Virus record (IMG/VR): IMGVR_UViG_3300042883_000924
Direction: 5' to 3' (one strand)
Length of the DNA stretch: 20,000 nt
Source of the DNA: an uncultured virus (IMG/VR IMGVR_UViG_3300042883_000924)
Lineage: Duplodnaviria; Heunggongvirae; Uroviricota; Caudoviricetes
Under the pieces are notes generated by a model. The model made no database searches. It was not told where the DNA came from and saw only the letters and a list, made by a program, of their open reading frames with translations. The translations under genes were made by a program, and so were the position numbers. Below, piece after piece: positions 2 to 20,000 of this stretch (the first letter of the stretch is position 1; every line of letters begins with the position of its first letter).

Positions 2-3000
2 TTTTGTTTTATCTTCTTTTTTTGACTCCATTTCAACCTCTGCTTTCAATTGCTCTTTAATATCATTGTCAACAGATTCTTTTAATTGCTCCTTTGCTTC
101 TTGTATTTTTTCAAATTTAGCAGTTTCTTCTATCATCATTTTAGGAGTCAATGGATATCCCTTATCTTCTTGTCTACTTAATAAAAAGTTTGATAATGTG
201 TTAGCTTCGTTAAGCTTTTTTATTATTTTTAAACTTTCTAATGCCTTACCAGTTTGAGATGCACTTTGTTGGAATATATTAGCAAATTCAGTAATCTTGG
301 CTAATAATTCTGCTGAAGGATTATTTTTTAATTCCAAATCTAATGCAGCTCTATATTCAGCCATAAATGCATTTTCGTAATTAGTTAAAATCTTTCCTAA
401 TTTTATTTTATCATACAAAGATTCAACGCTTACGCCTTTTTTAATCATCTCTTGAGCTGCCTCTCTTAACATTTCATGAGTTTCAAGAGGTAATCCTTTG
501 TATGGTGGAAGCCCAAGACTTTTTCTTAATTCACCTATATCTGCTGCTGTTATTCTAACATAATCTACATCACCATTATCCAATCCTACATTTTCAATTT
601 CTTCTGGGATTTCCGTAGTACTTTCGGGCTGTGTTGCTTCTGTGCCTGCACCCTCTTCGGTAGTTGTTTCCCCTTCGACTCTTGGTTCCATTCGTTTACG
701 TCCACCCCCTGATTCTCCATCTTCTCCTTGTTTTGGTTGAAGTATTTTCTCTGTGCTTCGCTCTTGTACGGCATCTTTTATATTTTTAAATGTTGGTAAA
801 TCAAATTCTGACTTTGCGATTTCAATTAAATCCTGTTCTGTAAAATCAAGTTCATCTATCGCTTTTTTATCTTCTTCATTTTTTAAATTATCCTTTATGA
901 AATTCTTTTTATTTTTAAAGCTTTTTATTCCTTTTAACTTATCAACTGCTGCTATTTGTTCTTCTTGACTAACAATATCTGCAACTACTTTTTTAGAAAA
1001 TTCATCTAATGTCATATTAGATATTTGTTCAGCAGTCATATTTCTAATTCCAAAATGAATTGCAATTGTATCCCATAAATCTTTTAACCATTGTTTAAAA
1101 TCAGCTTTTTGTGCAGCAGTTACAAATTTTTCTCCATTATCACCTATAGCTTTTGCAAGAGCTTCTGATTTAAAATAATTTTCTCTTTCTAATTCAGGTA
1201 ATTTAGATGCATTTTCTTGGTAAACTGGATTATTCTTAACATCGGAAAGATATTTAGAACCTTCTATTTTAGCCATTCCAGCATCATGCAAATCTTCTCT
1301 ATTTTCTTTAGCCCAACTTAACCATAAATGACCTGCTTCATGGAATGGGGTATTACCATTCATTACATCAGCATTTAATACAATTTTGCCATTTTGCTCA
1401 AAACCATAAATCGTTCCTGTAGCATCTGTCATCATATTAACATTACTAGGATGTTCAGAAGCTGGTTTAACAACTCCTTTAGCCATCCCAATTTGATTAC
1501 TACCAAATTTGCCCGCACCTCCTTTTTTATCTACAGCATTGTTATTTGCATCATTTAATATATCTGTAACGTGTTGAGATTCTTTTAATACATTTAATAC
1601 CGGTTTAACTTTATTGCCATTTTCATCAAATTGTTGCAAATGAAATGGATAACTTTCATGACCTTCTTCTTTACCACTTAAATCAACAACTTTTACTGGA
1701 TGTTTTATTTCAATAGTTGCATATGCTTCACTATTTTTTACTCCAACGGTCATGTTGTCTGATAGTAAATGACCAATAGCATCAATTATACCTTCTTTAG
1801 CAAAACTAATCTCTCCTGTTTTTCTTTCTGTTGATTGTGGTAAAGCTTCAGTATTAAGTAATTCTCTTATTTTACCAATATTTTCTTTAGCGCTTTTACT
1901 ATTTTTAGCTAAATGGTCAATAATATCTTGTACAAAAAAACCTCTTTTTGAAAATGTAGAATCATTTACACCAAAAAATTTTTTAGATATATCATCGTGA
2001 ATAGCTTTAGCATCTAATCTACCATCAAAATCTATATTATATTTTTTACCAACTTCAGTTAATGCTTTTCTAAAATCAGATAAAGAAACTAATTTTTTAT
2101 CTACAAAATATTCTAAAACTTTCATTGCAGCTTTAGCACCTGTATGAGATGTTAAAGATTTTGATAAATCCCCTTTTGTAACAACAACATGAATTGTACC
2201 ATTTCCACCAGCATCGATGTCCTTTTGTCTTGCTTCATTTATATATTTAGCCAAAGTATTAGCTGTAGCATTATCGGAAGATGCCCATACATCACCAAAT
2301 TTAGTAACAAAGTTTATACCACCATTACCATCTACAATCGGTTTACCATTTTTTGTAATAACTTCTCCCGTAAGCATATTATCAGGATTGATAACTACTA
2401 CTGGTTTTCCTTCTAATCCTTTTATGTCAAAATTTAATTTAACAGTACCATCATCAATTAATTTTTTCCATTGAGGTGATTCTTCAAATCCTTTTTTTTC
2501 AAACCCGCCCCAAGATTGCAAATTAGCCCCACCTGTTTTAATAGCATCTTCTAATGCTTTTGCAAAGTTTTTACCCTTTAATACACTTATTTTAGCTTTA
2601 TCACTTAATTTTTGAATACCCTTTCTTATTTTATCAACTATAGGATTATATACCTCTTTTGGTATTTCAACAGGTTTTGTTTCTTCAGCTACTTCAGTTG
2701 GTTTATAAGCCAATAATTGGTCAGGAGTGTAACTCCTTAACATTTCAACAGAAGTGACTTCTACAGGTTCTTCATCTTGTTCTGTTACTGCAAATATTCT
2801 TTCTCCATTACTACGTCTTCTTTCAGCTTCTAATGTGCTTCCTATTGGTTCACCTTTTTCTTCTAAATCAAGTGGTATTTCTACTACTTCAACTGGCTCA
2901 ACTTCTTCTTTTACTTCAACAACCGGTTCAACATTTTCTATTGCTTGCATTGGTTCTTCAACAACTGTTGTTTCTACTTCTGCTTTAGGCTCATTTTTAC

Positions 3001-5368
3001 TTTTTTCTTTCAAGTTTATTTGATAAGCTATATCTTCAGCTATACTTCCCTTGAATGTTCTTTTTTTACCATCAGCTGTTTCTAGATTAACGGAAACTAT
3101 ATTTCCATTCTCATCCTTATTAATTGCTTTTAATGGATTTGAGTATCTGTTTATATAAGGCTTTTGTCTTACATTTATATTCCCTTTATCGTCAACTGAA
3201 ACCAAAGACTCATCGTATTTAACATCAAATTCAGATGCCGGTTTTTCTTGTATTTCAGATGCTTTGCCTATTTCATATTTTTCTCCTGAAGTCTCGTTCT
3301 CAAATACAATGCTATCCCCATCCTGCAAGAATGTTCCTTTTTGCCCTTTGTATGTACCTTTTTTATCTACAACTTCAGCTATTGTAATATCTTTTTCTAC
3401 TGGCGGATTTATAGCCTCTATAAAAGATGCTTCTGTACCCATTTCATTTTCAGCAATTTCTCCTGTTTCTTTGTACTTTTGCGCTCTCTTGTATAAATCA
3501 GGAAGGTAGTTAGGGTCGCTATCTATTTTCTTATTAAATTCTTCAAATGAATTAGGAAAATCAAATTCTGGATTATTTGATTTTACACCATATAATATAT
3601 CAAATTGCTCTACTCTTCTGCGTCTATTTTCGTCAACAGGAGCTTTCTTTCTGCTATCTTCTTTCTTAATTGCTTTAGCTAAATCATAACGAGCTTGACT
3701 TATTGGAGTTTTATCTCCATTTTCATCAACTTTATAATAAGTAGTTTCTTCTCCTTTTTTACCATCTCTTTTTACATATCTTGGCTTCTTTCCTGTTGCA
3801 AGACCTTCTAAATAATCGCCCGTTTCATCTATTTTAGCTTGTATTAAATCAATTTGGTCTTGCTTTTCTTTTCTAAATATAGGGTCAACTTGCATCATCT
3901 CTTCACGAGCGTTTTGCAAATCTTGTTGTAAGCTATTTCTTTGCGAAATGCCACCTATAATTTTATATTTATCTTCAGGTGATACTGTTGTAGGAATCTT
4001 CTCTGCAATTTCTACATATTGTTGTGCTGTAATATTTGCTGCTTGCGCTTCTTCTGGAGTTATATTACCCTCTTCTACTTGTTTGTTTATTTGGTCTTGT
4101 ATATTCTGCAAATCGGTGGTAACCTTTTTGTTACCCGTAGATTGATTAAATTCATTTTCTGTAACCTCTTTATCGTCAACATAAAACTTTTTTTCACCTG
4201 TAGCGTTTGCAACTTGTTGTCTTATTGCCTTATCTGTACTATTTAAACCTTGTAAACCTGCTCCGGTTGCTCCGCCCATTGCAGCACCCATAATAGCATT
4301 ATTAACAACATTTTTCCAAAAGTTTTTATTTATATCTTCTTCATTAAAAACTTCTTTTTCTGCTATTTTATTAGTTGCTACTTTTATAGCATCCGAAGCC
4401 GCTTGCTGAATGCCTTCTGTACTTCCTTCCACAAAAGCACTTTCCAATCCTTTTATTCCTACATTTTTTAATTTAGTAGATATTTTAGCTGCTTTTTTAA
4501 CCATCTCATCTTGAACCTCTTTTGCAGTAGCTTTTATGCCTTTTTGAGCAAATCCTTCAATAACCTCTGCGGTAATTTTCTTTTCTATACTTTTAGCTAA
4601 CCCTGTATTTTTTAATATTTTATCTATAGAAAATTTTTCAAGAGCTGCTTGAGCTGCCGCTTGAGTAAATAAATATCCTACTTTTTGAACATCGGTTAAT
4701 TTTTTACCTTCCCCGCTTTCTTCCAATTCTTTTGCGTTGTCATTGACTGATTGTTGAGCAAATGTTAAACCACCGGACATACTTCCGGCAGCCATTTCTA
4801 ACAATGTTTTAGGTGCTTGAAACGCCAACCCTCTGACATCCTCCCAGTCTACCCCACTCATTAAACCTCCACCCTCTGTTGGGGTAATATCAAATTGACT
4901 TTGTTGTTGCTCAAATTCCTTACTTGACCTTGATGAACGAGCTTGCTCTATAAAATCAACGGCTTTTTTCCTATCTGCTTCTGCAGTTGCAACCCTTACA
5001 TTTAAAGGCATATAAGGTTGAGCGCCAAGTATATCAGCCATATAAGTAAATCCGCCTGAAATTGATGCTAAACTTCCAACTAATGTATTATACACTCCGG
5101 CTACATTGCTACCTTTAATTTTGTCTTTCTGAATAGCTTTACCTATTGGACTTTTATATCCAATAGTAGCCACTTCTTCTCCTATATCAAATTTATCTTG
5201 AGATGGTAATGGTGTAACCGAATATCCTGAAGGTGTAGCTTTTTTTTTTACACCAAATACCTCATCTGGAGTAGGTATTCTTTTTTTAGTTCCAAATACT
5301 TCGTCTGGAGTAGGTATTCTTCTTTTAGGTTGCGCTTGGTCTTGGTCTTGTTCTATTTCTAAAGCCAT
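2..5368 (-). CDS. Giant internal virion/ejection (polyvalent-type) protein, 3'-truncated by the window edge, >=1789 aa; contains a zincin-like (HExxH) metallopeptidase domain
   Basis: Translated by hand: ATG at 5368 (MALEIEQDQDQAQPKRRIPTPDEVFG...) with no stop in this frame down to position 2 (...QLKAEVEMESKKEDKTK). The ORF track missed it because its stop lies outside the window. Motifs: EGSTEGIQQ (4403-4429) and Gly/Ala-rich segments typical of ejection proteins; E/V/P-rich linker (about 2640-3000); GTIYGF..GKIVLN..NTPFHEAGHLW (HEAGH at 1328-1342) with downstream EALA (E at 1163-1165). Lies after two smaller ejection-like genes. Confidence 0.9.
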   Translation of the reverse strand, partial: MALEIEQDQDQAQPKRRIPTPDEVFGTKKRIPTPDEVFGVKKKATPSGYSVTPLPSQDKFDIGEEVATIGYKSPIGKAIQKDKIKGSNVAGVYNTLVGSLASISGGFTYMADILGAQPYMPLNVRVATAEADRKKAVDFIEQARSSRSSKEFEQQQSQFDITPTEGGGLMSGVDWEDVRGLAFQAPKTLLEMAAGSMSGGLTFAQQSVNDNAKELEESGEGKKLTDVQKVGYLFTQAAAQAALEKFSIDKILKNTGLAKSIEKKITAEVIEGFAQKGIKATAKEVQDEMVKKAAKISTKLKNVGIKGLESAFVEGSTEGIQQAASDAIKVATNKIAEKEVFNEEDINKNFWKNVVNNAIMGAAMGGATGAGLQGLNSTDKAIRQQVANATGEKKFYVDDKEVTENEFNQSTGNKKVTTDLQNIQDQINKQVEEGNITPEEAQAANITAQQYVEIAEKIPTTVSPEDKYKIIGGISQRNSLQQDLQNAREEMMQVDPIFRKEKQDQIDLIQAKIDETGDYLEGLATGKKPRYVKRDGKKGEETTYYKVDENGDKTPISQARYDLAKAIKKEDSRKKAPVDENRRRRVEQFDILYGVKSNNPEFDFPNSFEEFNKKIDSDPNYLPDLYKRAQKYKETGEIAENEMGTEASFIEAINPPVEKDITIAEVVDKKGTYKGQKGTFLQDGDSIVFENETSGEKYEIGKASEIQEKPASEFDVKYDESLVSVDDKGNINVRQKPYINRYSNPLKAINKDENGNIVSVNLETADGKKRTFKGSIAEDIAYQINLKEKSKNEPKAEVETTVVEEPMQAIENVEPVVEVKEEVEPVEVVEIPLDLEEKGEPIGSTLEAERRRSNGERIFAVTEQDEEPVEVTSVEMLRSYTPDQLLAYKPTEVAEETKPVEIPKEVYNPIVDKIRKGIQKLSDKAKISVLKGKNFAKALEDAIKTGGANLQSWGGFEKKGFEESPQWKKLIDDGTVKLNFDIKGLEGKPVVVINPDNMLTGEVITKNGKPIVDGNGGINFVTKFGDVWASSDNATANTLAKYINEARQKDIDAGGNGTIHVVVTKGDLSKSLTSHTGAKAAMKVLEYFVDKKLVSLSDFRKALTEVGKKYNIDFDGRLDAKAIHDDISKKFFGVNDSTFSKRGFFVQDIIDHLAKNSKSAKENIGKIRELLNTEALPQSTERKTGEISFAKEGIIDAIGHLLSDNMTVGVKNSEAYATIEIKHPVKVVDLSGKEEGHESYPFHLQQFDENGNKVKPVLNVLKESQHVTDILNDANNNAVDKKGGAGKFGSNQIGMAKGVVKPASEHPSNVNMMTDATGTIYGFEQNGKIVLNADVMNGNTPFHEAGHLWLSWAKENREDLHDAGMAKIEGSKYLSDVKNNPVYQENASKLPELERENYFKSEALAKAIGDNGEKFVTAAQKADFKQWLKDLWDTIAIHFGIRNMTAEQISNMTLDEFSKKVVADIVSQEEQIAAVDKLKGIKSFKNKKNFIKDNLKNEEDKKAIDELDFTEQDLIEIAKSEFDLPTFKNIKDAVQERSTEKILQPKQGEDGESGGGRKRMEPRVEGETTTEEGAGTEATQPESTTEIPEEIENVGLDNGDVDYVRITAADIGELRKSLGLPPYKGLPLETHEMLREAAQEMIKKGVSVESLYDKIKLGKILTNYENAFMAEYRAALDLELKNNPSAELLAKITEFANIFQQSASQTGKALESLKIIKKLNEANTLSNFLLSRQEDKGYPLTPKMMIEETAKFEKIQEAKEQLKESVDNDIKEQLKAEVEMESKKEDKTK
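586..774 (-). CDS. Small basic protein (62 aa, MPYKSEAQRKYF...) nested in the +1 frame of the giant virion gene
   Basis: ATG preceded by an A-rich Bacteroidota-type initiation region (TTTAAAAATATAAAAG-ATG); ends at TAG. The sequence resembles small phage proteins I recall as MP(F/Y)KSxAQxx(Y/F)...W...KxLPxR. The host frame stays open but is low-complexity over the same stretch. Confidence 0.65.
   Translation of the reverse strand: MPYKSEAQRKYFNQNKEKMENQGVDVNEWNQESKGKQLPKRVQAQKQHSPKVLRKSQKKLKM
5252..5320 (-). repeat. Coding direct repeat, 2 x RIPTPDEVFG with a 39-nt period, at the N-terminus of the giant protein
   Basis: Minus strand AGAATACCTACTCCAGACGAAGTATTTGGA (5291-5320) and AGAATACCTACTCCAGATGAGGTATTTGGT (5252-5281); differences are synonymous only. 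Confidence 0.9.
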
Positions 5369-5381
5369 TATTTCGGTTTTT

Positions 5382-5389
5382 CAAATATA
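5382..5389 (-). promoter_or_regulatory. Possible Bacteroidota -7 promoter element (TATATTTG) upstream of the giant gene
   Basis: Matches TAnnTTTG in the 40-nt intergenic gap, 13 nt before the ATG; no TTTG -33 box at the expected spacing. Confidence 0.4.
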
Positions 5390-5408
5390 CAAAATATTAT
5401 TTTCCCTT

Positions 5409-7127
5409 TTATTTTTTATTTTCTGCAATTCTAAATCTCTTCACTTCTTCAGTATTAAGACTTTTTAATTTTTTTATATCTGCATCAGTCCAACCGCCCT
5501 CTACTAAATCATCATAATCATATATTTGGTCTGACATTCCAAGACTTTTACCGCTAACAAGATATACTTTTACATTAGGAGCCTTATCCCCTCCTGCTCT
5601 AAACTTTTTTATCTCTTCGCTTGTAGCACTTGGTTCCTTCGTAGCGCTTGGTTGCTTCGTAGCGATTGGCTCTTTTACTTTTGGAGAAGCTTGATTTAAA
5701 TTTGGTAAATTTTCAATTTCTGCCGCACTTTCACTACCAGATATTTGTTGATAAGAACCCTGAAGCTTATCTCTTAAGTACGGGTCAGTTGCCTTAATAA
5801 TATCACCACCTATTATTTTTCCTTTGCTATCTGCATATTTCAATTGTACCCCAGTAACTACGCCATCTGGTCTTTTATATACTTCTATTTTAGAAAATCT
5901 TGACTTCCCGCCACCTAAACCATAAAGTTTACCAGCTAAAGCTTTTATACTATCTACATTATTAGATTTAATAGCTTGCGTAAATGTATCTAAATATTCT
6001 CCAATTTTACCAGCTTTTCTCTCTCCTTCTGTTGACTTTTGCCCTGCATATGATGGAGGAGGATTGTATGATGTTTCAGATAGACCCACAAATCCTTGTG
6101 TATCTTTCTTTTTTAAATAATTATATAAAGCATTTCTATTAGCAAAATCTTTTTCTTGTGGGCTAAATGTTTTGTACTGTTCTGGAGTAAATTGCTTTTG
6201 TGCTAATGAAACAATTTCAGATTTAGCATTATTTCCACCTTCGGTTAAAAATTTATCATATGCCACTTGAGGAACCATATCTAATGGCTTATCAACTCCC
6301 CTTAATGAATTAGCAGGCAATGGTTCATTTGCTATTTCAACTCCTCCATATGTCAAAGATGGAATCTTTCCACCTTTTTTTATAAATCCGCTAGGTTCAA
6401 CTTCAAATGTTGGCTTATTCCAAAAACCCATTTTACCTGAAAATGTAGTATATGCTTGAGGAGTACCAAGTTTAGCCTCTATATTACGAGAAGATTCTTT
6501 ACCTGATATTACCTTATCCAATGTGTTATATTCTGTAATGTATTTGGATAAATTTTCCGGATTTGACAATTGAGCAATAAGCGCAGAATCTTCTACTTGA
6601 TTTGGGTCAACAAATTGCCCTTCTTTAATTCTTCTATTTCTAACATCGCTTCTTAAATCATTTTTAAGCGCAGCAGCATCTATTGAAGGATAATTTTTTG
6701 CATATTGATTTACAATTTCATCAATATTATTATGTTCTAAAATGAATGTATTCGATGCTCTTGTAATACCCTTCATTACATCGTCTATTTCTGTCTGCAA
6801 TGCAATAGGGTCAATTGATTTATTGTTCAATTTAGCCATTAAGTTAGATTTCACCTTTGATACAGCGTCTTGCGCTACCATATAAGCCTGTTCGTCAGCG
6901 GGCATCCTATCTAATCTAGCTCCAGATTGAATCATTGCCATACCTCTTTGCCTTTCCGCTTCTAATTCTTTGGCTTTTCTTTCTTCTGCTTGTTGATTTC
7001 TAAAATTAGCCGCTTCTTGTCTTTCTAAATCTCTTTCTTTTTTAGCAGATAAAGCTTGCAAAGCTTCGCCCGGAGATTGAAATATCTTTGGAAGATTTAC
7101 CGCATAACTACCTAAATTTTCTGCCAT
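5409..7127 (-). CDS. Putative internal virion/ejection protein (572 aa)
   Basis: Long ORF with a coiled-coil-like N-terminus (KKERDLERQEAANFRNQQAEERKAKELE) and helical charged composition; middle gene of a small-medium-giant trio after the tail nozzle, as in podoviruses. Confidence 0.65.
   Translation of the reverse strand: MAENLGSYAVNLPKIFQSPGEALQALSAKKERDLERQEAANFRNQQAEERKAKELEAERQRGMAMIQSGARLDRMPADEQAYMVAQDAVSKVKSNLMAKLNNKSIDPIALQTEIDDVMKGITRASNTFILEHNNIDEIVNQYAKNYPSIDAAALKNDLRSDVRNRRIKEGQFVDPNQVEDSALIAQLSNPENLSKYITEYNTLDKVISGKESSRNIEAKLGTPQAYTTFSGKMGFWNKPTFEVEPSGFIKKGGKIPSLTYGGVEIANEPLPANSLRGVDKPLDMVPQVAYDKFLTEGGNNAKSEIVSLAQKQFTPEQYKTFSPQEKDFANRNALYNYLKKKDTQGFVGLSETSYNPPPSYAGQKSTEGERKAGKIGEYLDTFTQAIKSNNVDSIKALAGKLYGLGGGKSRFSKIEVYKRPDGVVTGVQLKYADSKGKIIGGDIIKATDPYLRDKLQGSYQQISGSESAAEIENLPNLNQASPKVKEPIATKQPSATKEPSATSEEIKKFRAGGDKAPNVKVYLVSGKSLGMSDQIYDYDDLVEGGWTDADIKKLKSLNTEEVKRFRIAENKK
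5623..5676 (-). repeat. Three imperfect 18-bp coding tandem repeats (KEPIAT/KQPSAT/KEPSAT)
   Basis: Plus strand gtagcacttggttccttc / gtagcgcttggttgcttc / gtagcgattggctctttt. Confidence 0.85.
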
Positions 7128-14003: not shown

Positions 14004-14852
14004 TTAATTTTCCTCCCAAATTCCTAATGCTCTATAGGATTTTATTAAATAATAAGATTTATCTCCATATTCATATTTCTCAAGGTACTGCGGTTCAAAA
14101 CCAACAACATCTCCTTTTTCCAAGCCAGAATCTTCGGGAGCTGATAGTACTTTTGCTCTATCTCCAAGTCTAACTTTTGCATCAATAGTATCAACAATAC
14201 CCATTTGCTTTATTACATCTTTTGGTATATTTTCATCAATTGGTTCTAGAATAATTCTATCGCCAACTGTTGTAAGTTCATCATTTTCTATTTTAGCATA
14301 TATATCCCTGTAGTCAGCTTTCCAAACATCTTTGTCGTTTATATCAATTAAATTTTTAAATAAAAACCTTTGGGTTTCACCAAAACTAAATTGAGATTTC
14401 CATCTACTTATATCGTGTTCAGACCCTTGGCATCCATCAACAAAGTTACCTCTTTTATCATGCAATGTACCTACCCATATATGGGTTATCTTTCCCGGCA
14501 TTGCTACAATAAGCAATCTTTCTCCTTTACCATTTGTAAATTTTTGGTAATAAGGGCTATCTTTTGTTATTTCAGTAAAACTTCCACCATCTGATTCAAA
14601 TTTTCTTTCCGCAACTACAGAATAATCAAACAAAACCTTATCTCCATTTTTAAGTTTAGAAACAACTTTTGAATTATCTCCTTTTGGATTTTTTGGCAAT
14701 CCGTAAATTTCACCTACTACTGTAGCGTTCCATTCAGGTCTGTACGACCCGTCAAGATATAACTCTAAATCACCTACCTTGATTGTATCTTGAATAGGTT
14801 TTGTTAAGCTTAAAAAAATATGATTTACCGGTTGTGCTTGCATATATGGCAT
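14004..14852 (-). CDS. Tandem GroES-like (Cpn10-fold) protein (282 aa)
   Basis: Two GroES-like units: PVNHIFLSL...GEIYGLP...LKNGDKVLFDY and VGDRIILEPI...AKVLSAP...LEKGDVVGFEP....YEYGDKSYYLIK. Confidence 0.65.
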   Translation of the reverse strand: MPYMQAQPVNHIFLSLTKPIQDTIKVGDLELYLDGSYRPEWNATVVGEIYGLPKNPKGDNSKVVSKLKNGDKVLFDYSVVAERKFESDGGSFTEITKDSPYYQKFTNGKGERLLIVAMPGKITHIWVGTLHDKRGNFVDGCQGSEHDISRWKSQFSFGETQRFLFKNLIDINDKDVWKADYRDIYAKIENDELTTVGDRIILEPIDENIPKDVIKQMGIVDTIDAKVRLGDRAKVLSAPEDSGLEKGDVVGFEPQYLEKYEYGDKSYYLIKSYRALGIWEEN

Positions 14853-14875
14853 AAAATTAGACTTTTTTATTTATT

Positions 14876-14916
14876 AAAAATTAAAATGCCCCCAAAAATT
14901 TTGAAGGCATTTTTTT
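14876..14916 (-). terminator. Intrinsic terminator downstream of groES
   Basis: Minus-strand RNA stem AUGCCUUCAA / UUGGGGGCAU (two G-U pairs that form only on the minus transcript) followed by UUUAAUUUUU. Confidence 0.75.
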
Positions 14917-14919
14917 AAA

Positions 14920-15180
14920 TTAAATCACAGCGTCGATATAACTTTCGTCTGGGATTAACCTTAACTTTTCTCCATCGACTTCAATATCTACCCCTACGCT
15001 ATGGGCAAACATTATTCTATCGCCTTCTTTAACAAGCGCAGCTTCAGTTCCAACAGCAATTACCTTGCCTGTTGAAAAATCATTTTGAGCTGTTTGCGGA
15101 AGATAGATTCCCGCATCTGTTTGCATTTTTGCTTCGTCAAGCTTTACTAATACCCTTTTGTTTAATGGTTTAAATTTCAT
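14920..15180 (-). CDS. groES: Co-chaperonin GroES (Cpn10), 86 aa
   Basis: Canonical motifs KPLNKRVLVK, mobile loop TDAGIYLP, GKVIAVG, VKEGDRIMF, DIEVDGEKL. Confidence 0.92.
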   Translation of the reverse strand: MKFKPLNKRVLVKLDEAKMQTDAGIYLPQTAQNDFSTGKVIAVGTEAALVKEGDRIMFAHSVGVDIEVDGEKLRLIPDESYIDAVI

Positions 15181-17775: not shown

Positions 17776-18450
17776 TTATATTGGTTTAAAGGCGTTTCTA
17801 GCGTTTTCTAATTCGTTCTGATATTTATTACTAATCTTGGAAGAAGATGGCTGCATTGGCTTCTTTACGGCATCCACAACCCATCTCTTAATAGTTAGGT
17901 AATCTGATTTTGTTTTATAGGATTTTTCAACTTTATAGGAAGAAAGAAAATCAAAACATTTCTGAACAATATCTTCCCCAAATTCTAAATCAAGTTTTAT
18001 TTTTTCTTTTTCAAGCAAAGAAATATTATGCCTGTATTTTATTTCCTTTATTTCCTTTCCTTTCCTTTCCTTTATAGCATTACTATCGGATTGCGGTTGC
18101 AATGCGTTCGCATTATTCCATCTCTTATTAGCTGATTCTCTTGCTTTTATGCTTTTATCATTTCTTTCATCTAGTCTTTTTTGTACTGATAGACTTCCAA
18201 ATGTATTAACATCAAAAACAAATAAATCAAAATCATTTATTACAGAAAAAACAGTGTCGCTATCTGACCTTAAATCATACGCAATACCATCGTAATCCAA
18301 TCGCAATGCGTTCGCATTATTATATAAATCTTCAACTATAGACCAAAACACGCCATATCCTTGCATGCCATGTTTTCTAATAAGCCTTTTTATCTTTTCG
18401 TCATTACGAGCATTATAGTCGTGAGAAAAGTAGAATGTGTCTTTTGGCAT
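17776..18450 (-). CDS. Replication initiator-like protein, DUF4373/Lin1244-type N-terminal domain (224 aa)
   Basis: YFSHDYNARNDEKI..L....G..GYGVFW.IVE.L N-terminus, repeat-rich middle linker and C-terminal KSDYLTIKRWV; lies directly upstream of the helicase. Confidence 0.8.
   Translation of the reverse strand: MPKDTFYFSHDYNARNDEKIKRLIRKHGMQGYGVFWSIVEDLYNNANALRLDYDGIAYDLRSDSDTVFSVINDFDLFVFDVNTFGSLSVQKRLDERNDKSIKARESANKRWNNANALQPQSDSNAIKERKGKEIKEIKYRHNISLLEKEKIKLDLEFGEDIVQKCFDFLSSYKVEKSYKTKSDYLTIKRWVVDAVKKPMQPSSSKISNKYQNELENARNAFKPI
18037..18321. repeat. Iteron-like repeats plus (TTTCC)n tract within the initiator gene; candidate replication origin
   Basis: Exact 19-bp repeat gcaatgcgttcgcattatt at 18099-18117 and 18303-18321, each containing the palindrome AATGCG-nn-CGCATT; tttcc repeats at about 18051-18073. 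Confidence 0.65.
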
Positions 18451-18459
18451 TTTATATGC

Positions 18460-18657
18460 TTAATCGTTAATAAAATCGGTTTTCAACGCCTCGTTAATAC
18501 GAGTTATTTCGGCATCGGTAAATAATAATTTACCTTGCATCTTTCGTGATAATTCCGATTCTGGGATTTTAGCATTTAGTGATAACCACCTTTGTGTACG
18601 CCCATCTAAAGCCTCTTTAATTCTCTCGTGGAGTCTTAATTCAGTTTTGATTTCCAT
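18460..18657 (-). CDS. Small Cro/XRE-like HTH regulator (65 aa)
   Basis: TQRWLS...IPESELSRKMQGK..FT..EI..I pattern; first gene after the leftward promoter. Confidence 0.75.
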   Translation of the reverse strand: MEIKTELRLHERIKEALDGRTQRWLSLNAKIPESELSRKMQGKLLFTDAEITRINEALKTDFIND

Positions 18658-18682
18658 AAATTTGTTTTTGATTATTGAGGAA

Positions 18683-18713
18683 CAAAAATAGTCTTATTTT
18701 TTACATCCCCAAA
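18683..18713 (-). promoter_or_regulatory. Leftward Bacteroidota sigma70-type promoter
   Basis: Minus strand TTTG (18713-18710), 19-nt spacer, TATTTTTG (18690-18683); matches the -33/-7 consensus. Confidence 0.8.
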
Positions 18714-18739
18714 TATTTTTAACTTTTTTTTAAAATTAT

Positions 18740-18769
18740 TTTGTGTTTTAATTAAATTAATTATCTTTG
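18740..18769 (+). promoter_or_regulatory. Rightward Bacteroidota sigma70-type promoter
   Basis: TTTG (18740-18743), 18-nt spacer, TATCTTTG (18762-18769), 20 nt before the ATG at 18790. Confidence 0.78.
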
Positions 18770-18789
18770 CTAAAACATTAAAACAAAAA

Positions 18790-19023
18790 ATGAGTCAAAA
18801 ATTACAGGTGCTTAATCACCTTAAAAAAGCAACCCTAACACCATTAGTGGCATTAAGAAATTATGGTACATTTAGATTAGCGGCTATTATATTTAATCTT
18901 CGTGATGAAGGTTATATAATTGAAACTAATAGCACTAATGTAGGTACAAAGAAAAAACCTAAATATGTAGCTAATTATAAATTGATTACGGCAGAGCAAA
19001 ATAATAAACAAGATGGCATATAG
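18790..19023 (+). CDS. Winged HTH protein (HTH_39-like, 77 aa)
   Basis: SQK.QVLNHL....LTPL.AL..YG.FRLAA.I..LR..GY.I.T signature, with C-terminal VANYKL. Confidence 0.8.
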   Translation: MSQKLQVLNHLKKATLTPLVALRNYGTFRLAAIIFNLRDEGYIIETNSTNVGTKKKPKYVANYKLITAEQNNKQDGI

Positions 19024-19522
19024 TACAATAATAGTTAAGAAAAAACAACTTAAATGTGGTTGTTATGATTACAACTTTAGCAAGAGCAGATGTAAAAAAC
19101 ACGCAACACTTGAGGATACAGCTAATAGAATAATAAAATATAGGCACGAAAATATAAAAGAAGATAAAGAGCAATTATGGGATTGGTTTAAAGAAAAAAG
19201 AAAAGAAATGAAGGGAGTATGTTCTAATTGCAATAATCCATCATCAAAAAAAGATGATGAAAAATTTCACTACAGCATAGCGCATATATTGCCAAAAAGA
19301 TTATTCCCATCGGTAGCCACGCATCCGGACAATTGGATTGAACTTTGTTTTTGGGGCAATAGTTGCCATACTAATTTTGATAACAGTGTAATTGACCTTA
19401 TAGATATGAATTGCTTTGATGAAATAATAGAAAAATTTATAAGGATATATCCAAATGTTGCAGAAGAAGAAAAAAGAAAAATACCACAAATATTGATTGA
19501 ATACTATAACCAAAACAAATAA
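19013..19522 (+). CDS. HNH/NinG-like Zn-binding nuclease (169 aa)
   Basis: CSNC...AHILPK..FPSVATHPDNWIELC....CHTNFD beta-beta-alpha-Me pattern plus N-terminal CGC...C..H; C-terminus is YYNQNK. Confidence 0.7.
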   Translation: MAYSTIIVKKKQLKCGCYDYNFSKSRCKKHATLEDTANRIIKYRHENIKEDKEQLWDWFKEKRKEMKGVCSNCNNPSSKKDDEKFHYSIAHILPKRLFPSVATHPDNWIELCFWGNSCHTNFDNSVIDLIDMNCFDEIIEKFIRIYPNVAEEEKRKIPQILIEYYNQNK

Positions 19523-19525
19523 CCT

Positions 19526-19612
19526 ATGAAACAGTTAGATATACTAATGATGATTATTATAACTTGGGTAATTGGATTTTTAACAGGATATTTTAAAGCT
19601 AAAAACAAATAA
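19526..19612 (+). CDS. Single-transmembrane microprotein (28 aa)
   Basis: MKQLDILMMIIITWVIGFLTGYFKAKNK*; exactly fills the space between junction repeats 1 and 2; hydrophobic core and basic C-terminus. Confidence 0.75.
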   Translation: MKQLDILMMIIITWVIGFLTGYFKAKNK

Positions 19613-19615
19613 CCT

Positions 19616-19894
19616 ATGAAAAGATTATTTATTTATTTACTTAAAAAATATAGTAAAAAAGAATCTGATAGAATTATTATCTATAATGAATTATGGGAAA
19701 GTTTAACTAATGAGTATAATGAACAAAATAATTATGGAAATATTTATAATATGAATATTGAATTTATTATGTCAAATCATTTTATAAATAAAGCTGTAAT
19801 TTCTGAAGATGATATTTCAATAAAAATGATTAAAGGATGTTTAGCAGAGTCATTTAATCATTCATTGATTTATATTAAAAACCAAAACAAATAA
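19616..19894 (+). CDS. Hypothetical protein (92 aa), repeat-flanked cassette
   Basis: Starts and ends within junction repeats 2 and 3; ends NQNK; very AT-rich. Confidence 0.75.
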   Translation: MKRLFIYLLKKYSKKESDRIIIYNELWESLTNEYNEQNNYGNIYNMNIEFIMSNHFINKAVISEDDISIKMIKGCLAESFNHSLIYIKNQNK

Positions 19895-19897
19895 CCT

Positions 19898-20000
19898 ATG
19901 AAAACAGCAATGCAAGAAGCAATAGAACTTGTAAAAGAGTATAACAATAGAATAATACCTTATAATGTTTTATTGGGTAATTTAGAACTATTACTTGAAA
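19898..20000 (+). CDS. Hypothetical protein, truncated by the window edge (MKTAMQEAIELVKEYNNRIIPYNVLLGNLELLLE...)
   Basis: ATG inside junction repeat 3; frame open to the window end. Confidence 0.7.
   Translation, partial: MKTAMQEAIELVKEYNNRIIPYNVLLGNLELLLE

Follow-up and report, generated by a model that had tools for sequence, protein, structure and literature searches.

Integrons are built from IntI, attI and arrays of attC cassettes. Among phage systems, cassettes bounded by PeSLs come closest to the locus reported here, and the work on them reportedly has a follow-up study (PMC4122927). In the available text on the T4-type phages RB49 and phi1 (Arbiol et al. 2010, PMC2839356), repeated motifs flank non-essential ORFans, an ORF lies between two motifs in one strain where the other has a single motif, and insertion, deletion and replacement are directed to tolerable sites. 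All of this resembles the present locus, in which small phage genes are separated by a short stop-to-start repeat (the joint). However, PeSLs are described there as intergenic and composed of a promoter and a stem-loop, whereas the joint is unstructured, carries neither promoter nor terminator, overlaps the coding ends of both neighbouring genes and is common to unrelated phage lineages. Mini-circles are demonstrated for PeSLs in the same text; for the joint they are putative. With integrons, the locus has in common that each unit holds one co-oriented ORF, promoterless as judged from the 3-nt spacing, that the stop codon lies inside the site and that the array stands behind a promoter in a single orientation. 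In contrast to integrons, no tyrosine recombinase was found in the clade and carrier records, the joint has no attC-like hairpin, and crossovers occur at several unrelated sequences. Measured by the defining tests, the joint is neither an integron site nor a PeSL.

A second comparison is offered by the boundary or linker sequences of lambdoid phages (Clark 2001; Susskind and Botstein 1978, as cited in PMC3029335), which, like the joint, are short conserved gene-border sequences used as crossover points in general recombination. The portion of PMC3029335 available states that linkers were not found at most mosaic boundaries and gives one mycobacteriophage case; it also describes Island3 gene 67/68, where the last ~50 bp of the inserted gene are common with the upstream gene, which recalls the NQNK tails found here. 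The present locus differs from these linkers in that one joint defines 17-allele slots, occurs in more than 120 viral stretches and was apparently captured by resident genes. The probable enzymology is that of Rad52-like relaxed recombination, in which short homologies are exchanged (De Paepe et al. 2014, PMC3945230); the part of that study available gives 23-27 bp as the minimum pairing length of Red-beta and deals with scattered homology in lambdoid phages, with no standard joint. A further difference is that no single-strand annealing protein (SSAP) of the ERF, Sak4-like or RecT type was found in G000-G004, all of which are incomplete records. The small accessory Ea22 proteins of lambda and Stx phages, with a constant front and an exchangeable back (PMC10834534, available in part), are reminiscent of the MKTAMQ/WDGH proteins encoded here, although the hosts differ and whole neighbouring genes are swapped here too. 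Ea22/Ead homology was not detected by Pfam for our 152-aa protein, nor by PHROG for this and three other MKTAMQ-type proteins. Literature searches, with subscription journals mostly outside their coverage, yielded no published description of the motif or of its cargo family and nothing relevant on the function of the WDGH domain.

Genome setting and the junction repeat

The window, that is the whole stretch of 20,000 nucleotides analysed, belongs to a contig of 66,701 bp and 33.6% GC (G000), which we regard as a Bacteroidota-type tailed phage from a lake. It is assigned to the tailed phages because its relative G001 encodes a terminase and virion proteins. The genes of G000 include a primase/helicase with a BT4734-like domain and an SSB, and a Bacteroidota host is inferred from the BT4734-like and replication genes, the A-rich starts and a Sediminibacterium MAG contig that carries the motif. 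At least 0.81 of the sampled words were contained in each of 20 lake-water DNA runs, 7 of which are possible sources of the DNA, and 0.06-0.18 in RNA runs. The ends of G000 (1-127 and 66575-66701) form a perfect 127-bp inverted repeat, and G005 was classed likewise. L145, which is 98.7% identical over the left flank, continues past this repeat into a RecE-like exonuclease region, and L127 and L132 also continue; G000 is therefore probably incomplete, and true inverted terminal repeats are doubtful. The most probable cause is that the assembly broke here, possibly at a segment of several kb that can invert.

The features of the locus are as follows (window coordinates unless G000 is named).
18762..18769, plus strand: putative Bacteroidota -7 promoter box TATCTTTG, located by pattern and presumed to drive the HTH/HNH/cassette operon
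18790..19023, plus strand: 77-aa winged-helix (HTH) gene (PF14090, E 3.5e-11), with other genes in its place in several relatives
19013..19522, plus strand: 169-aa HNH-like nuclease gene, the left anchor (phrog_144, E 2.5e-6), whose last codons, YNQNK-stop, are repeat
19508..19531, plus strand: junction repeat copy 1, core AACCAAAACAAATAA followed by CCT and ATGAAA; left breakpoint against near-identical strains at 19531
19526..19612, plus strand: cassette 1, a 28-aa hydrophobic peptide, with an 86%-identical copy in a different slot of L017, repeat at both ends
19602..19621, plus strand: junction repeat copy 2, exact 20-mer
19616..19894, plus strand: cassette 2, a 92-aa ORFan without Pfam or PHROG family
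19880..19903, plus strand: junction repeat copy 3, exact 20-mer
19898..20000, plus strand, cut by the window end (whole gene G000 64462-64920): cassette 3, 152 aa, WDGH domain (PF25311, E 1.5e-34)
19994..20000, plus strand: start of the middle hub (LEKEKEQ codons), which extends 16 bases beyond the window; halves of the MKTAMQ family are exchanged here
G000 64894-64920: repeat copy 4 and end hub; right breakpoint against near-identical strains at 64905
G000 64927-65181 (window-equivalent 20363-20617): 84-aa gene without family match, the last gene in 4 of 13 filled alleles
G000 65183-65208 (window-equivalent 20619-20644): hairpin, the right anchor, terminator-like for the minus strand

The promoter box was named after TAnnTTTG, which we take to be the Bacteroidota promoter consensus. 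The exact 20-mer AAAACAAATAACCTATGAAA occurs in the window at 19512, 19602 and 19884, with no further match at up to 3 mismatches; 0.01 exact matches are expected by chance, and none of 200 shuffles contained three copies. AACC precedes copies 1 and 3 and is missing from copy 2, so that the coordinates 19508-19531, 19602-19621 and 19880-19903, which a sequence-only reading of the window had assigned to an identical stop/start repeat, are correct. The ORF check agrees with the same reading on the units: the joined ORFs encode 169, 28, 92 and 152 aa, each joint reads stop-CCT-start, and the inter-repeat units of 90 and 282 bp hold one ORF apiece (28 and 92 aa), with proteins ending in NK and the next beginning with MK. 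As that reading had also expected, the array runs on past the window, since the 152-aa fourth ORF ends in YNQNK at a fourth core (G000 64906-64920, window-equivalent 20342-20356), just beyond the window and followed by ACTAAA-ATG. Its description of four unrelated joined ORFs holds for the junctions but not for the fourth ORF as an orphan, because this is a mosaic member of the large MKTAMQ family. For the 92-aa cassette, no relatives were found in viral contigs (70 candidate stretches).

When the repeat was counted in the rest of the genome, a check that the reading had proposed, the 20-mer had no other copy in the 66,701 bp of G000, even with 4 mismatches allowed. A single extra match to the 11-bp core by itself, at 18215, falls within a replication gene on its non-coding strand and is taken as chance. 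The core is short, A-rich and internally periodic (TAACC-N8-TAACC); the invariant core comprises 10-15 bp, the joint 15-24 bp and longer hubs 24-40 bp. A cassette unit accordingly extends from CCT-ATG through the gene to AACCAAAACAAATAA. In four lake runs, one of which (X5) is a possible source of this DNA, Logan contigs extend across junctions 1, 2 and 4 without differences, and across junction 3 marginally only.

A placement in a phage early region, as initially suggested, did not hold up. The slot adjoins replication genes and is transcribed away from them, and early-type small genes are located at the other end of the contig. There, over 20 small genes of early type follow one another in G000 681-6953, and A/T-rich words recur from stop to start between them (14-mers, 2-4 times); these words differ from the slot repeat. 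Adjoining the slot, a second variable region covers window 17776-19023, where the replication-organiser, 65-aa and HTH genes are replaced in several relatives. Further upstream, window 14004-15180 encodes two adjoining GroES-like proteins of 282 aa and 86 aa (the latter identified by eye); the homolog of the 282-aa protein in G001 has co-chaperonin PHROG matches at both ends.

Empty and filled alleles in close relatives

Searches with the HNH-like protein returned 20 viral and 45 metagenome loci. Our close set consisted of 32 loci with at least 82% protein identity and G000, 33 in total, of which 31 have both anchors; some of the close loci are probably one assembly present in two collections. 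The 31 two-anchor loci fall into 17 alleles with 0-6 genes, namely 13 filled alleles (20 loci, 1-6 genes) and, at the other 11 loci, 4 empty types. In the empty alleles, one core lies between HNH and hairpin, and filled alleles usually repeat the core around each gene; two-copy and one-copy alleles thus coexist in close relatives, in the manner of PeSLs. Ahead of the hairpin, the last element is a core in nine of the 13 filled alleles and the 84-aa gene, without a full 3' core, in the other four. The 31 cassette ORFs from 14 alleles (including the truncated L156) represent 25 distinct genes. Judged by these alleles, the slot between the HNH-like gene and the hairpin is hypervariable.

In 60 of 66 pairs of filled alleles, identity stops 0-11 nt past the HNH stop, and in the other 6 it stops after a common MKTAMQ start; these counts exclude the 12 pairs that involve L153, because its first junction is altered. 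A replacement is seen in L125, L126 and L145, which are 98.7% identical to G000 for 5.5 kb, as far as window 19531, and 97% identical again from 20341. One unrelated 71-aa gene stands in them in place of the three G000 cassettes, and the swap lies exactly between copies 1 and 4. The proposal that the repeat is a point of single-gene gain, loss and replacement is therefore borne out, as the gene content of relatives differs, the breakpoints lie in the repeat and a single copy persists in empty alleles. An intact left core is present in 12 of 13 filled and in 1 of 4 empty allele types (Fisher p 0.02, in a small and related sample), as would be expected either if incoming cassettes renew the core or if the process requires one that is intact. 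The hairpin-proximal end was common to alleles in three cases and the HNH-proximal gene in one.

All records used are metagenome assemblies, and the hubs are common to many phages per sample, so we considered whether the allele diversity might be mis-assembly at a short repeat. Against this, 8 of the 17 allele groups hold 2-5 loci (some probably duplicates, and L155/L157 being common in the empty core only), empty alleles carry point changes of their own and the Logan contigs span junctions 1, 2 and 4. We consider this explanation extremely improbable.

The sequence-only reading had named the adjacent HNH/NinG-like nuclease as a candidate participant, which the wider comparison does not support. 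Distant homologs have tails such as EYLKTEL and QYINTDK, and NQNK ends none of the 32 readable ones (33 loci, one of them not parsed and one probably misread). Any HNH match was present at just 16 of 122 motif loci (5 the same gene, 11 distant; 81 of the 122 loci having a length of 3 kb or more), so that repeat and nuclease are not linked to each other. The HNH protein was also considered as the mobilising enzyme and found to be unsupported by these counts. The clade proteins end in IEYYNQNK, resembling the cassette-family end EEYYNQTYNQNK, and we infer that the slot may have arisen by replacement of the 3' end of the HNH gene via a short stretch of matching sequence. The HNH gene looks like a bystander that captured the joint. 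Two ERF genes ending in NQNK, one in L207 (the Sediminibacterium MAG contig; directly at the joint, with cassettes after it) and one at G006:26526-27068(-), look like similar joint captures.

Crossover hubs, translation and spread of the motif

Exchange is not confined to whole genes. Cassette 3 is a mosaic with an MKTAMQ front half (39 aa identical to L262), a switch at LEKEKEQ, a WDGH domain and the tail NQTYNQNK. Among 58 MKTAMQ genes in the loci, more than one partner was found for most of the halves that recur (5 of 6 at the front, 6 of 7 at the back), and among the 120 listed of 304 homologs of one member, 10 matched in the front half only, 11 in the back half only and 1 in both. The halves are exchanged at a 26-bp middle hub, the sequence of which is unrelated to the repeat, and the start and middle hubs of the family are nearly fixed at the DNA level. 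Lake contigs leave and rejoin the stretch at the same three hub places. Across 97 loci, 75 of 279 mosaic breakpoints fell in hub windows, which make up 2.4% of the bases, and 204 lay outside hubs (54 of them at ORF borders), the counts being non-independent and the loci picked for carrying the motif. At ORF boundaries, 60 of 114 breakpoints were in hubs versus 11.7% expected, an enrichment of ~4.5-fold over other borders. Mosaic breakpoints thus fall in the boundary sequence, as in boundary or linker shuffling. Comparison of the loci demonstrates that whole genes as well as gene halves are passed on among strains and across unrelated lineages, the breakpoints lying at the core or at two other short conserved hubs. 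A separate observation concerns L217-L239, where the WDGH domain lies inside mosaic small proteins of higher-GC phages, several of which have LKEKNT or AHGI-type tails and 'LALEAL'-type helix starts; this is possibly a parallel hub system in another host group.

These data also bear on whether the repeat is purely a selected translation stop/start signal, viable exchanges falling at gene borders anyway. The joint does provide a stop, a 3-nt spacer and an ATG, with A at -12/-13, which is part of the start context of Flavobacterium, where A at -3, -6, -12 and -13 are positive determinants in the part of the study available (Baez et al., PMC6847099), and the 54 non-hub breakpoints mentioned above are likewise at ORF borders. 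On the other side, the joint has C at -3 (as in 2 of 77 genes) and T at -6, and within 3 mismatches of the 18 bases before the repeat ATG, no match was found at any of the 77 other G000 genes, which speaks against a generic initiation sequence used genome-wide, the reading's own alternative. Moreover, the core is found before the hairpin with no gene after it, hub borders are enriched over other borders and mid-gene swaps occur at a hub without a translation role. As a sole explanation, translation is largely refuted, and we rate it as very improbable. Six of the 21 slot cores do not encode protein, and codons otherwise seldom used in G000 (AAC 24%, GAG 22%, CAG 11%) are retained in the hubs. 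In view of its partial start context, the non-coding cores and the rare codons, the joint is a workable start, with conservation at the DNA level; a putative translation coupling at the joint is plausible.

The motif reaches far beyond the clade. In IMG/VR, the 18-mer was found in at least 122 and the 21-mer in at least 123 stretches, compared with none for the reversed 21-mer, so that a short gene-border sequence is common to different phages, as for boundary or linker sequences. Carriers include three complete, end-repeated 34-kb genomes with 2-4 copies each; the protein families that the clade has in common with every one of them comprise two cassette families and the HTH gene, together with a small membrane protein and two virion proteins. 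L154 of the clade and L024 have 463 bp at 99.1% in common, with the repeat at both ends and no other common stretch of at least 40 nt except repeat copies, and L134 and L080 have in common 217 bp at 96.3%, from the repeat to the end hub. Given this near-identity, transfer between unrelated lineages looks recent. A generic host start signal was also considered and rejected, as the GTDB collection contains 8 motif stretches on 5 contigs only, most in phage-like gene context. Four of the 8 are on the Sediminibacterium MAG contig, and the motif of L212, between housekeeping genes, is probably due to chance. A blastn search of annotated phage records (INPHARED) for a cultured model gave one unannotated partial match only.

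In relatives, cassette families also occupy other slots, often right after a TAnnTTTG box, and occur with a second junction type. Cassettes a few bases after such a box were seen at G003:62163, G003:10250, G001:12024, G002:16029(-) and G006:32240(-), the G003, G001 and G002 positions referring to reverse-complemented records. In the tail regions of G002 and the unrelated G006, the same promoter-plus-leader stands ahead of an MKT-type gene, suggesting that promoter and leader form a mobile block nearer to a PeSL.

Recombination enzymes and mechanism

SSAP genes are common in phages. The sequence-only reading had recommended a search for SSAP or tyrosine recombinase genes nearby, and the outcome was split: SSAPs were found in many carriers and in none of the clade records, and a tyrosine recombinase in no record searched. 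PF00589 was not found in the 5 clade records (all incomplete) or in 29 other carrier records, 10 of them near-complete, nor was the serine recombinase PF00239 in 21 records, 10 of them near-complete, which leaves no resolvase or invertase of the shufflon type among them. A Pfam scan of 63 of the 134 listed ORFs of the three complete genomes detected no recombinase, reverse transcriptase or transposase besides ERF, and no recombinase-like family common to the clade and these genomes was found. ERF is encoded by 9 of 29 carriers (6 of 10 near-complete), RecT by 1 of 21 and a near full-length Sak4-like AAA_24 protein by 4 of 21 (1 over the cut-off), with 2 more partial matches; these SSAP counts cover carriers only. 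A PHROG scan of 46 of the 79 ORFs of G001 gave no annealing protein.

At L145:8674-9761, a 122-aa family abuts the start of the RecE-like exonuclease. It has 607 homologs, the 120 listed ones being unnamed, hypothetical or labelled with stray names. The family has no Pfam or PHROG match, and the Atlas places it in unnamed viral clusters only. A single-sequence fold model matched unrelated folds best (Z 6.4), and an alignment-based model gave non-significant ERF-like matches (E 0.04-0.3). The protein is a candidate minimal annealing or exonuclease-partner protein.

A 50-nt junction folds at 0.0 kcal/mol as RNA and as DNA on either strand, unlike an attC-like hairpin, and the joint contains no inverted repeat. 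The repeats have no terminator-like site, and sigma-70-type promoter matches are at chance level (18 vs 14.8). Contigs of four runs, which drop rare forms, contained neither a circle joint nor a clean within-sample deletion. Contig joints such as 2093-2461 have 22-nt sides with the middle sequence unread and more likely come from other family members. An integron-like mechanism, as first envisaged for the array, is thus disfavoured by the lack of a tyrosine recombinase in the 5 clade and 29 other records, by the lack of an attC-like fold and by swaps at unrelated intragenic hubs.

Overall, the repeat is a common swap point and a portable boundary sequence of many freshwater Bacteroidota-type phages. 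With a probability of roughly two in three, we favour boundary-sequence (PeSL-like) shuffling by short-homology recombination, not an integron, as the explanation of the compared loci. Exchange driven by homology is suggested by the several unrelated crossover sequences, the different SSAPs per carrier and the lack of a common recombinase. The crossovers would arise by sequence-independent short-homology recombination during co-infection, catalysed by phage SSAPs with an exonuclease (ERF, Sak4-like, RecT) or by host functions. One-gene circles could loop out and re-enter at any core as a contributing route, and a gene that captures the joint at its 3' end would create a new slot. Since stop, 3-nt spacer and start all lie within the joint, crossovers would leave intact translatable genes in the operon, and selection would keep the products. 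The longer hubs reach the pairing minimum of Red-beta, but the 10-15 bp core is below it, and some junctions have nothing more in common.

This shortness also bears on recombinase-free template switching or replication slippage at A-rich direct repeats, which would produce the deletions, circles and hybrids and for which an SSAP would not be needed. The short, A-rich and periodic core, the lack of an SSAP in G000-G004 and the mere 10-15 bp at some breakpoints would suit such slippage, which accounts well for losses but leaves unexplained how near-identical genes could be acquired from unrelated phages with a boundary on each side; many carriers do, moreover, encode SSAPs. We regard slippage as unlikely, yet worth keeping in mind.

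The allele pattern would also be compatible with a dedicated site-specific system, either host-encoded or of an unrecognised family, that recognises the core and moves one-gene circles in an integron-like manner. One-core empty and duplicated-core filled alleles are what circle integration would produce, the same core is kept across unrelated lineages, and both the predominance of intact left cores in filled alleles and the more frequent commonality of the hairpin-proximal end point the same way. The negative searches for PF00589 and PF00239 in phage records, the three complete genomes included, the lack of a common recombinase-like family and of an inverted repeat or fold, and crossovers at three or more unrelated hub sequences argue against it, and we assign it a slim chance. 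In its furthest form, there would be a community-wide cassette standard, with one-gene circles moved by a dedicated unrecognised host or phage enzyme and the core spreading selfishly via resident 3' ends; although doubtful, such a standard would be an integrase-free counterpart of the integron that acts across a phage community. With so short a joint of known sequence, it can be tested directly whether exchange is driven by homology or site-specific.

Whether phage mosaicism stems from selected random illegitimate joins or from short conserved linkers is an old question, for which clear linker cases are few according to the available part of PMC3029335. With boundary-sequence shuffling as the preferred reading, the locus offers a dense natural linker example, with one defined joint, empty and filled alleles in near-identical strains, recent cross-lineage transfer and the apparent birth of new slots through joint capture at gene ends. 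It also points to a large unannotated pool of small phage genes, one family of which alone numbers at least 304 clusters; these genes are swapped in many combinations and may be putative host-interaction or anti-defence factors.
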